From a virus (Duplodnaviria; Heunggongvirae; Uroviricota; Caudoviricetes), in IMG/VR virus record IMGVR_UViG_2913147268_000005: 64,000 bases of DNA. One strand, written 5' to 3'. Positions 62,329-64,000 of the stretch are shown here, in pieces. The translations under genes were made by a program, and so were the position numbers. Positions within the stretch are counted from its first letter, which is position 1; the number at the start of each line of letters is the position of its first letter. The notes under the pieces are model-generated. The model did not search any database and was not told the DNA's origin. It was given only the letters and a program-made list of their open reading frames with translations.

Positions 62329-64000
62329 TTTCCGCCTCCTGCATCCCGCCCACGTTTTGCAGCCAGGGTCCAGGCTGATGAATGAGCTTCTCCGGGTTTA
62401 TCTTCGGTCATACTGTTGCAGTGCCACAGCGAGCCCCCCCACGTCACCGTATCGCCGGGGTGGTAGGTTTCACCGGCTCTGAACACACCGCGGTAGAGCA
62501 TCACCGGCAGGGAAAATGTTTTTTCCGTACGCTGGCCACTGCTCTGCCGGACCACCACAGAGAACAACCGCTCACCCGTCATGCTGACGTCAATATCCGC
62601 CACCCCGTCAACCAGGCATTCCCATCCCCGCATCCCGTGCGTTTTTTCATACGCCCGCCAGAGTCCGCCCTGGTGTGTGGCATACGTGCCCCGGGGAAAG
62701 GATTTTTGATCGTCAATGGCGGGGAGTATTTCCAGAGCCGTGGCATCACGCCCGTCCTGCGGAGCCGGCAGGGCACTCACCGCATCCAGAACCGCCTTCT
62801 GCAGAACATCCGGATCGTAGTCACGACCATCACGCGGAACATGAATATGGCTTACCGCCTCCTTCACCATCTGTTCAAGCATCGGACGCACATCATCCGG
62901 GGTGAGACTTTTACCGTCTGCCGGCTGCGGAATATTTGCGACCGCATCATTCACCGCCTTCTGCAGAACATCGGGATCATAGTCACGACCGTCGCGCGGA
63001 ACAGGGATATGGCTTACAGCCTCCTTCACCATCTGTTCAAGCATCGGACGCACATCATCCGGGGTGAGACTTTTACCGTCTGCCGGCTGCGGAATATTTG
63101 CGACCGCATCATTCACCGCCTTCTGCAGTACTTCCGGATCGTAGTCACGACCATCACGCGGAACAGGGATATGGCTTACAGCCTCCTTCACCATCTGTTC
63201 AAGCATCGGACGCACATCATCCGGGGTGAGACTTTTACCGTCTGCCGGCTGCGGAATATTTGCGACCGCATCATTCACCGCCTGCTGCAGTACATCCGGA
63301 TCATAATCACGACCATCACGCGGTACCGGAATGGCCCCCACAGCGTCATCCACCATCGCCTGCAGAACCGGACGCACCTCATCCACCGTCACATGCTTCT
63401 GTAATACCGCCGACAGGGAAGTCAGTTTCTCTTCAAACGCTTGTGCCTGCGAGGCCATCTTCCCCTCAAATGTGCGCTGTAAATCCGCCAGCACTGTGGA
63501 GAATTCTTCTCCCAGTGCACGAATAATGGACAGTTCCCGTTCCGTCATTTTCTCAGTATCCCCCCTGAACATCGCTTTCACCGCATCATGCTCTGTTTCA
63601 CTGATTGCCTTATTACCGTCAGATGCGCCGTCAGGCAGCTGTGATGAAACTGTTTTCCCGGCAGACGCGAACGGATCCTCACGGGCATCACGACGGGACA
63701 GCGCCTCCAGACTGTAGTTCTGCTGCTGAAGATACAGTGCATCACCGCCGGCCAGGGGCGGCAGGTTCTCCCGTTTACGGGCCTCATTGGGCGTGAGAAG
63801 CGTATTTTTCACCGCATCCCCCAGCGTTTTCATGCGCCGCTCACTGTCCATTCTCAGCAGCGTGGTGACATCAAATTCTGTACTCTCGTTTTCCCCCGTT
63901 TCCAGCGCCTCATCCAGTAACAGTTCAATGGACTCAATCAGCGTCTGCAGGCACTGGGAATAATACTGCTGCTCCAGCGCCTCCACGTTGTCACTGGAAG
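62325..64000 (-). CDS. Phage head structural protein with tandem 54-aa repeats (5' end outside the window)
   Basis: Frame stays open to the window edge; about 3.5 tandem copies of a 54-aa unit (PVPRDGRDYDPDVLQKAVNDAVANIPQPADGKSLTPDDVRPMLEQMVKEAVSHI). Confidence 0.55.
   Translation of the reverse strand, partial: SSDNVEALEQQYYSQCLQTLIESIELLLDEALETGENESTEFDVTTLLRMDSERRMKTLGDAVKNTLLTPNEARKRENLPPLAGGDALYLQQQNYSLEALSRRDAREDPFASAGKTVSSQLPDGASDGNKAISETEHDAVKAMFRGDTEKMTERELSIIRALGEEFSTVLADLQRTFEGKMASQAQAFEEKLTSLSAVLQKHVTVDEVRPVLQAMVDDAVGAIPVPRDGRDYDPDVLQQAVNDAVANIPQPADGKSLTPDDVRPMLEQMVKEAVSHIPVPRDGRDYDPEVLQKAVNDAVANIPQPADGKSLTPDDVRPMLEQMVKEAVSHIPVPRDGRDYDPDVLQKAVNDAVANIPQPADGKSLTPDDVRPMLEQMVKEAVSHIHVPRDGRDYDPDVLQKAVLDAVSALPAPQDGRDATALEILPAIDDQKSFPRGTYATHQGGLWRAYEKTHGMRGWECLVDGVADIDVSMTGERLFSVVVRQSSGQRTEKTFSLPVMLYRGVFRAGETYHPGDTVTWGGSLWHCNSMTEDKPGEAHSSAWTLAAKRGRDAGGGK
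62800..63410 (-). repeat. Tandem repeat, period 162 bp, about 3.5 copies, inside a coding sequence
   Basis: Near-identical 162-bp units visible directly in the sequence; boundaries approximate. Confidence 0.8.

Follow-up and report, generated by a model that had tools for sequence, protein, structure and literature searches.

The window analysed here, a 64,000-nucleotide stretch of DNA from a tailed virus (Caudoviricetes; IMG/VR record IMGVR_UViG_2913147268_000005), ends in an open reading frame (ORF) on the minus strand that carries an array of 162-bp tandem repeats. An earlier note had described about 3.5 near-identical copies at 62800-63410 inside a phage head gene, in a protein running beyond the window. 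The array proved essentially as described and the ORF is indeed open from 62325 to the window end at 64000; its annotation as a portal agrees with the head-gene assignment. However, sequence comparison places the repeats themselves in a second gene directly downstream of the portal, here called X, which has become fused to it through a change from five to six G residues. The features of the locus are as follows.

62325-64000, continuing beyond the window end, minus strand: 3' part of the fused portal-X ORF, with its stop codon at 62325-62327 (from the ORF list).
63765-63992, minus strand: C-terminal part of the HK97-family portal domain (Pfam Phage_portal, PF04860; 47.5 bits against a cut-off of 39.1; profile positions 247-321 of 321).
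63560-63565, minus strand: G6 homopolymer (C6 on the plus strand), with one G more than the G5 of split alleles (junction alignment).
62328-63548, minus strand: gene-X-equivalent ORF of 407 aa, beginning MTERELSII at an ATG at 63546-63548; a separate gene in Sp10 (ECs_1975), BP-4795 (ORF59) and the distant homologues examined.
63399-63542, minus strand: predicted long N-terminal alpha-helix of X (residues 3-50), a putative anchor or coiled coil (AlphaFold2; predicted local distance difference test, pLDDT, 89-95).
63318-63395, minus strand: older, diverged B-type sub-repeat (half-unit) before the array (frame reading).
63156-63317, minus strand: repeat unit 1, 54 aa, a 25-aa A plus a 29-aa B sub-repeat (Tandem Repeats Finder and frame reading).
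62994-63155, minus strand: repeat unit 2, 54 aa (Tandem Repeats Finder and frame reading).
62832-62993, minus strand: repeat unit 3, 54 aa (Tandem Repeats Finder and frame reading).
62757-62831, minus strand: partial fourth unit, an A-type sub-repeat only, 25 aa (frame reading).
62328-62756, minus strand: conserved C-terminal domain of X, predicted to be all-beta (AlphaFold2, pLDDT 93-98; Foldseek; Pfam).

Tandem Repeats Finder placed the array at 62791-63323 with a period of 162 bp, 3.3 copies, 95% matches, 0% indels and a score of 975, and a second row with a 324-bp period reached 63384. The repeats are in frame on the minus strand, which is the coding strand, and three complete 54-aa units can be read there, with pairwise differences of 5, 8 and 9 nt. 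Each unit consists of two related sub-repeats of the helix-plus-PxPxDG type, A (25 aa, DGRDYDPDVLQKAVNDAVANIPQPA) and B (29 aa, DGKSLTPDDVRPMLEQMVKEAVSHIPVPR). The element that was duplicated is the A+B pair, not the single sub-repeat, which suggests a two-helix element as the structural unit; weak profile matches to designed helix-loop-helix repeat proteins are consistent with such a unit and possibly reflect periodicity only. An antisense ORF across the repeats (62382-63404, plus strand, 340 aa) was rejected as a mechanical by-product of repeated, GC-rich coding sequence, and a scan of 62000-64000 for promoters and terminators returned nothing above shuffled expectation.

The last 2 kb of the window are 99.9% identical to a prophage in Escherichia coli ST131 genomes, such as JJ1887 and O25b:H4, and in JJ1887 the full-length ORF encodes 861 aa annotated as 'phage portal protein' (WP_000267294.1). 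The surrounding head module runs from the small and large terminase through a protease-capsid fusion (645 aa) and a 73-aa ORF to the portal, the head-tail connector, the head closure protein and onward. Searched with the full protein, the HK97 portal model TIGR01537 scored 349.4 bits (cut-off 112) and covered aa 45-388 only; the first 450 aa are a bona fide HK97-type portal. The repeats, at about aa 506 to about aa 718, lie beyond the end of the portal models (about aa 388-420) and are followed by a beta-rich domain.

The fusion turns on one base. In a junction alignment, split alleles read TTCAGGGGGAT (G5), whereas the window, JJ1887, YYZ-2008 and phage 2851 read TTCAGGGGGGAT (G6), the extra G shifting the portal frame into the X frame 11 nt before the X ATG. 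In the Stx1 phage BP-4795, the TGA of the portal gene ORF58 (454 aa) overlaps the ATG of ORF59 (461 aa) as ATGA, and two separate genes are also found in Sakai Sp10 (ECs_1974, 454 aa, and ECs_1975, 407 aa), Pseudomonas phage PAJU2 (gp06 and gp07) and EBPR siphovirus 3 (gp4 and gp5). Portal genes of the split relatives encode 454-464 aa and have the X homologue directly downstream, with the ATGA overlap wherever the junction was read. Programmed frameshifting at the junction was considered and set aside, the sequence from the G-run to the stop codon not being conserved (CTGAAAAAATGA in BP-4795 versus CTGAGAAAATGA in 86-24 and the window).

Where upstream sequence was present, X lay directly 3' of an HK97-type portal gene in 70/70 IMG/VR loci and in 45/45 GTDB species-representative loci from Enterobacterales, Pseudomonas, Caballeronia, Paraburkholderia, Rhizobiales and Caulobacteraceae. 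The upstream portal was in a different frame in all 45 GTDB loci; among the IMG/VR loci, 52 were split and 18 fused, and every IMG/VR homologue at 45-57% identity that kept its upstream sequence was split. An exact G6 45-mer occurs at 1369 places in 782 complete E. coli genomes and an exact G5 44-mer at 917 places in 490, counts that are lower bounds and are inflated by clonal sampling (of ST131 and O157 for the 782). An independent portal-X fusion is present in a distant lineage, in the 1237-aa representative P0210, which carries about 25 LPDIxxMVxxAVxxIxLPxPEP repeats.

Two prophages that are 99.4% identical over 9.7 kb (L034 and L035) differ in the tract, one being G6 and the other G5, and a second pair (L017 and L018) differs likewise; the change is therefore recurrent, with some records possibly reflecting homopolymer sequencing errors. 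Tract-length polymorphism that alters the reading frame, as is expected of a phase-variable locus, is thus seen between close relatives. Tracts of 5-6 nt are short for classical contingency loci. Sp6, Sp9, Sp10 and Sp12 are listed as sharing this head organisation, and of the four only Sp10, which could be moved into K-12, had no morphogenesis gene rated as damaged. In Sp9, portal and head were rated defective, and its packaged DNA was attributed to complementation by other prophages (PMC2669165). Sp9 aligns to the window without a gap across the G-run and so carries the fused allele. Because Sp10 is split and intact, Sp9 fused and defective, and the relatives split, we conclude that the two-gene state is ancestral and functional and that the fused ORF of the window is a derived frameshift allele of uncertain competence. 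In RefSeq/PGAP annotation it is the fused form that is named, and the split G5 portal-plus-X is flagged as a 'frameshifted' portal pseudogene (L005 2826-5410; L144 1173-3919).

X belongs to a large family. A search of 1.84 billion representative proteins at E<=1e-3 returned 5566 clusters at 50% identity, whose members are almost all stand-alone proteins of 250-700 aa; among the 149 representatives listed, P0210 alone had a portal-domain match. The homologues are named only 'hypothetical protein' and carry no Pfam domain. X itself had no above-threshold match in Pfam or NCBIfam, the PDB yielded only designed helical-repeat proteins (through periodicity and composition) and CBM5/12 fragments when searched by sequence and by profile, and no description of the repeats or of X was found in the literature. 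Some E. coli fragments have PF28083 assigned to them, an entry that yielded no interpretation. The stand-alone family PHROG 1289 matches X at E=7e-195, PAJU2 gp07 spanning positions 7-330 of its 331-position profile, and the 'portal protein' label of PHROG 1289 and of ECs_1975 is annotation carry-over; the fused form has a profile of its own, PHROG 2271, with 859 positions. In Burkholderia vB_SBP33 and Moraxella Mcat1, the homologous portal gene is followed directly by the connector gene, without X, and comparison of these loci indicates that X is dispensable for this head type, an accessory protein.

Structure prediction, which the earlier note had proposed for the repeat unit, was run with AlphaFold2 on a 95-sequence alignment as a monomer. 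Between the N-terminal helix and the C-terminal domain, the model shows one 13-17-residue helix per sub-repeat joined by extended PxPxDG linkers (pLDDT 50-70, packing uncertain). The C-terminal domain had a pLDDT of 95-98 in this model; modelled alone, it reached a pLDDT of 93 and a predicted template modelling score (pTM) of 0.74, and it contains a motif, GDxVTWGGSxWHC ... KRGRDG, whose columns are nearly invariant in the family alignments A2, A3 and A4. With Foldseek, the last ~50 residues superposed on the CBM5/12 chitin-binding modules of ChiC, ChiA1 and ChiB (root-mean-square deviation 1.5-3.1 A over 43-50 residues, probability 1.00, E 0.02-0.15), and matches were also obtained to tail-fibre or receptor-binding chains of Agrobacterium phages 7-7-1 and Milano and to the Anabaena contractile injection system (CIS) baseplate protein All3316. 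The whole 140-aa domain had no Foldseek match in the PDB (template modelling score, TM, <= 0.32); in BFVD, the matches were phage collagen-repeat and CBM5/12 proteins.

The segment between the two ends of X varies in kind as well as in length. In the homologue from Stenotrophomonas phage SOVA965, ~75 aa of collagen-type G-X-Y sequence connect the shared N-terminal helix to the shared C-terminal domain, and in Rhizobium phage RHph_X2_26 the stalk is a coiled coil plus collagen. Runs of at least six consecutive G-X-Y triplets occur in 39 of 130 full-length representatives, and none occurs in the window protein. The sub-repeat count (0-17) correlates with protein length (r=0.62), and homologues from E. 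coli, Pseudomonas and EBPR phages still share the sub-repeat motif at ~25-30% identity. The stalk is thus interchangeable across the family.

Unit number varies cleanly among close relatives. E. coli-type X proteins have lengths of 245, 299, 353, 407, 461 and 569 aa, equivalent to 0, 1, 2, 3, 4 and 6 full units with the frame always kept (a few truncated alleles were left out of these classes), and spans in deposited phage records differ in 162-bp steps. One allele, from strain 266917_2 (L144), has X flanks protein-identical to those of the window, but four units and G5. Units diverge by a mean of 7.3 nt within a gene versus 14.8 nt between genes, units 2 and 3 of YYZ-2008 being 1 nt apart; Stx1a_10051 has one unit only, which matches unit 1 of strain 86-24 exactly. 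This greater similarity within than between genes indicates concerted evolution, or repeated local expansion and contraction. Among the window units, the proportions of synonymous (pS) and non-synonymous (pN) differences are 0.145 and 0.016, a ratio of 0.11 (0.13 for 35 units from 11 genes), so selection on the units is purifying. Synonymous divergence of ~0.15 with this ratio points to maintained protein modules and not to a fresh slippage product. The span is three units in all ST131-type complete genomes listed, with no sign of instability within the clone, and the array looks stable at that level. The earlier suggestion of recent expansion or ongoing change stands for variation among related prophages, down to a close allele with four units, while 'recent' can be meant only relatively, given the divergence between units.

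Could the number of units be an artefact, as the earlier note had cautioned for short-read assemblies? Records matching 62500-63600 at >=99% number 611, with the 3-unit array ungapped in E. coli complete genomes; a 2-kb query matched 584 records at >=99%, the best 30 of the 584 without gaps. The presence of the same array in complete genomes, three units in every ST131-type genome listed, shows that copy number is not a product of assembly, and a collapsed or expanded array in the window is scarcely credible, even though two observations lean that way. Over 62000-64000, the window differs from ST131 complete genomes at two sites only, T for C at 63081 and 63243, exactly 162 bp apart; in both cases (units 2 and 1) the T is the base of unit 3 at 62919, and the changes are synonymous and homogenising. 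Either gene conversion private to the window or an erroneous consensus from short reads across the repeat accounts for them, and here alone the short-read caution finds an echo. The other observation is that the window appears to come from a scaffolded draft, to judge from a run of 10 Ns at 12085-12094 and a junction near 55488 that complete genomes do not span.

That junction (54243-55757) is spanned over 54000-57000 by 0/5426 complete E. coli genomes. Probably it was created in scaffolding, or else by a rare rearrangement that brought a P2-like prophage together with the prophage bearing the HK97-type head. The minor tail protein L gene beside it (55422-55757, minus strand) retains only its first 90 aa, and a phrog_143 ORF (54243-55706, plus strand) retains 420 of 634 positions. 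P2-like genes at 39588-49288 include a GPA replication protein and a gpP-like large terminase, and a second, lambda-like prophage at 18558-30592 (plus strand) carries a gpA-type large terminase, a lambda-family portal, a ClpP-capsid fusion and a lambda-type tape measure. The major tail protein (60075-60791, minus strand) has a C-terminal immunoglobulin-like domain (Ig_3, Ig_2 and I-set matches). The tape measure gene of the prophage with the HK97-type head, split in JJ1887 by ISEcp1-blaCTX-M-15 (L001 2846-9334), is intact in the window (56091-59333, 1080 aa).

Taken together, we consider it reasonably probable that the repeats are spacer modules in the stalk of X, a fibre-like accessory protein linked to the portal, and that its anchor and its binding domain lie farther apart the more units there are. 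X would consist of a long N-terminal helix, the repeat stalk and a C-terminal beta domain of CBM5/12-like modules; each repeat module would contribute two short alpha-helices joined by proline-rich PxPxDG linkers to a stalk of variable length, and the unit count would set how far the C-terminal domain reaches from an anchor near the portal or neck. Copy number would change by whole 162-bp steps, probably through unequal homologous recombination or replication slippage, with units within a gene kept alike by conversion or recent re-expansion. From the collagen-like and coiled-coil stalks of homologues and from the fold matches, we infer that X may be a trimeric, glycan-binding fibre present in the virion. 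Where it would sit is argued both ways. Collagen stalks and tips of the tail-fibre type favour a fibre on the outside of the neck or head, whereas the strict post-portal position and the repeated joining to the portal C-terminus favour an internal protein tethered to the portal.

Several points weigh against the spacer account. No proteomics, electron microscopy (EM) or solved structure was found for any member of the X family. The phi330 study ran virion mass spectrometry, the peptide-coverage maps in its Fig. S3 covering short-tailed phages only, and the phi330 record is apparently fragmented by frameshifts. The stalk is predicted with moderate confidence only (pLDDT 50-70), Foldseek E-values for the C-terminal domain are weak (best 1e-3), and the Pfam CBM_5_12 match (PF02839) at 62412-62480 scores 20.1 bits, below the gathering score of 26.2. 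In addition, portal-X fusions are common (the 782 genomes, 2851, YYZ-2008 and P0210), which is hard to square with a fibre on the outside, unless fusion abolishes function or the fused protein is processed. In known HK97- and SPP1-type portals, the portal C-terminus faces the capsid interior.

These fusions lend some weight to an internal alternative, in which X is a portal-tethered minor head protein like SPP1 gp7 or Mu F, attached to the crown within the capsid and perhaps leaving together with the DNA, the repeats serving as a flexible tether and the CBM-like tip acting on cell-wall glycan at entry. Such a protein would suit the invariable placement of X directly after the portal wherever upstream sequence is present, the natural fusions to the portal C-terminus on at least two occasions, and the narrowness of all its elements (single helices, Pro-rich linkers and small beta modules). 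On the other hand, a search for Phage_Mu_F (PF04233) gave no match at E<=1, the collagen-like trimeric stalks and tail-fibre-like C-terminal modules of homologues are typical of external fibres, and release coupled to DNA would be lost in alleles covalently fused to the portal; we regard this alternative as unlikely, though still a live contender. A broader proposal spans both locations, namely that X represents a new portal-vertex class, a trimeric fibre that would either form a whisker at the neck or collar or lie internally, tethered to the portal. It would end in a CBM5/12-like tip, the two-helix modules of 54 aa would adjust its length, and G5/G6 slippage would switch its portal attachment, so that prophage populations make free X or portal-X. 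We offer it as speculation and do not expect it to hold.

A different possibility takes the 861-aa fused ORF to be a native, functional portal whose repeats and beta domain extend from the crown into the capsid, like the barrel of the P22 portal. The abundance of the G6 allele, at 1369 places in 782 complete genomes and in the phage records 2851 and YYZ-2008, speaks for it, as do the existence of a fused-form profile (PHROG 2271, 859 positions) and the independent fusion of 1237 aa in the distant P0210 lineage. Yet the count of 782 is inflated by clonal ST131 and O157 sampling, 2851 and YYZ-2008 are deposited sequences in either of which a G5/G6 miscall is possible, and P0210 is the exception among distant homologues examined, which otherwise have separate genes. 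BP-4795 and the transferable Sp10 are split, Sp9 with its fused allele was scored defective for the portal (PMC2669165), and the whole state hinges on one extra homopolymer G at which even L034 and L035, 99.4% identical over 9.7 kb, differ. We judge a native fused portal improbable. Less plausible again, and in our view very improbable, is that the array is a neutral, functionless variable-number tandem repeat (VNTR) in a decaying prophage gene. The fused allele is possibly itself a defect, and the prophage sits in a poly-lysogen with related copies that bear insertion sequence (IS) insertions and frameshifts; but decay accords poorly with a pN/pS of 0.11-0.13, with whole unit numbers in each intact E. 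coli-type allele (the few truncated alleles left out), with a sub-repeat motif conserved across E. coli, Pseudomonas and EBPR phages at ~25-30% identity, and with the 3-4 units carried by functional phages.

The fused ORF and X resemble several known systems in part. The HK97-family portal (TIGR01537/PF04860) accounts for the N-terminal 450 aa of the fused ORF, and public annotation names the whole ORF after it, but the model does not reach the repeats and C-terminal domain, which BP-4795, Sp10, PAJU2 and 45/45 species loci encode in a gene of their own. SPP1 gp7/Mu F (PF04233) shares with X a gene position directly after the portal, occasional fusion and an accessory, non-universal distribution; X differs in lacking a sequence match to it and in its fibre-like architecture, its CBM5/12-like tip and, in some homologues, collagen-type stalks. 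The neck whiskers of T4, formed by fibritin (wac), are likewise anchored at the N-terminus, continue as an alpha-helical stalk that short loops break into segments, and end in a small C-terminal domain; wac is encoded among neck and portal-vertex genes. X has no detectable homology to fibritin, however, its helices are of 13-17 residues with Pro-rich linkers, and its trimeric state and neck location are only putative. With CBM5/12 chitin-binding modules and the phage tail-fibre tips built from them (7-7-1 and Milano, and All3316 of the Anabaena CIS), the resemblance lies in the C-terminal 50 residues, which superpose on the binding domains of ChiC, ChiA1 and ChiB at 20-30% identity with a shared GDxVTWGGSxW, although the match falls below the Pfam gathering score and does not extend to the whole domain in the PDB. 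Finally, in-frame modules that vary in number between related phages are also found in Hoc-type Ig-like decorations and in the collagen-like side tail fibres of O157 prophages, from which X differs in its type of repeat (helix plus PxPxDG, 25 + 29 = 54 aa) and in its strict portal linkage.

Variation in the number of in-frame repeats is already a known kind of change in phage structural genes, and as first stated the finding is ordinary. What is new is that a single base has merged two genes into the 'portal' ORF, that the repeats lie in a large, unnamed, portal-linked family with an unusual helix-PxPxDG stalk and a CBM5/12-like tip, and that annotation treats the fused form as the norm. The ~860-aa 'phage portal protein' of many E. 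coli genomes, ST131 and O157 among them, is thus two genes joined by one base, and the split, probably functional form is the one flagged as a frameshifted pseudogene. The 162-bp array provides a clean length marker (0-6 units) that separates near-identical lambdoid prophages of the kind that confound short-read assembly. X itself, whose family of 5566 clusters is as yet unnamed and keeps a strict link to the portal in Alpha-, Beta- and Gammaproteobacteria, is a candidate for a conserved accessory virion protein in Stx-converting phages.

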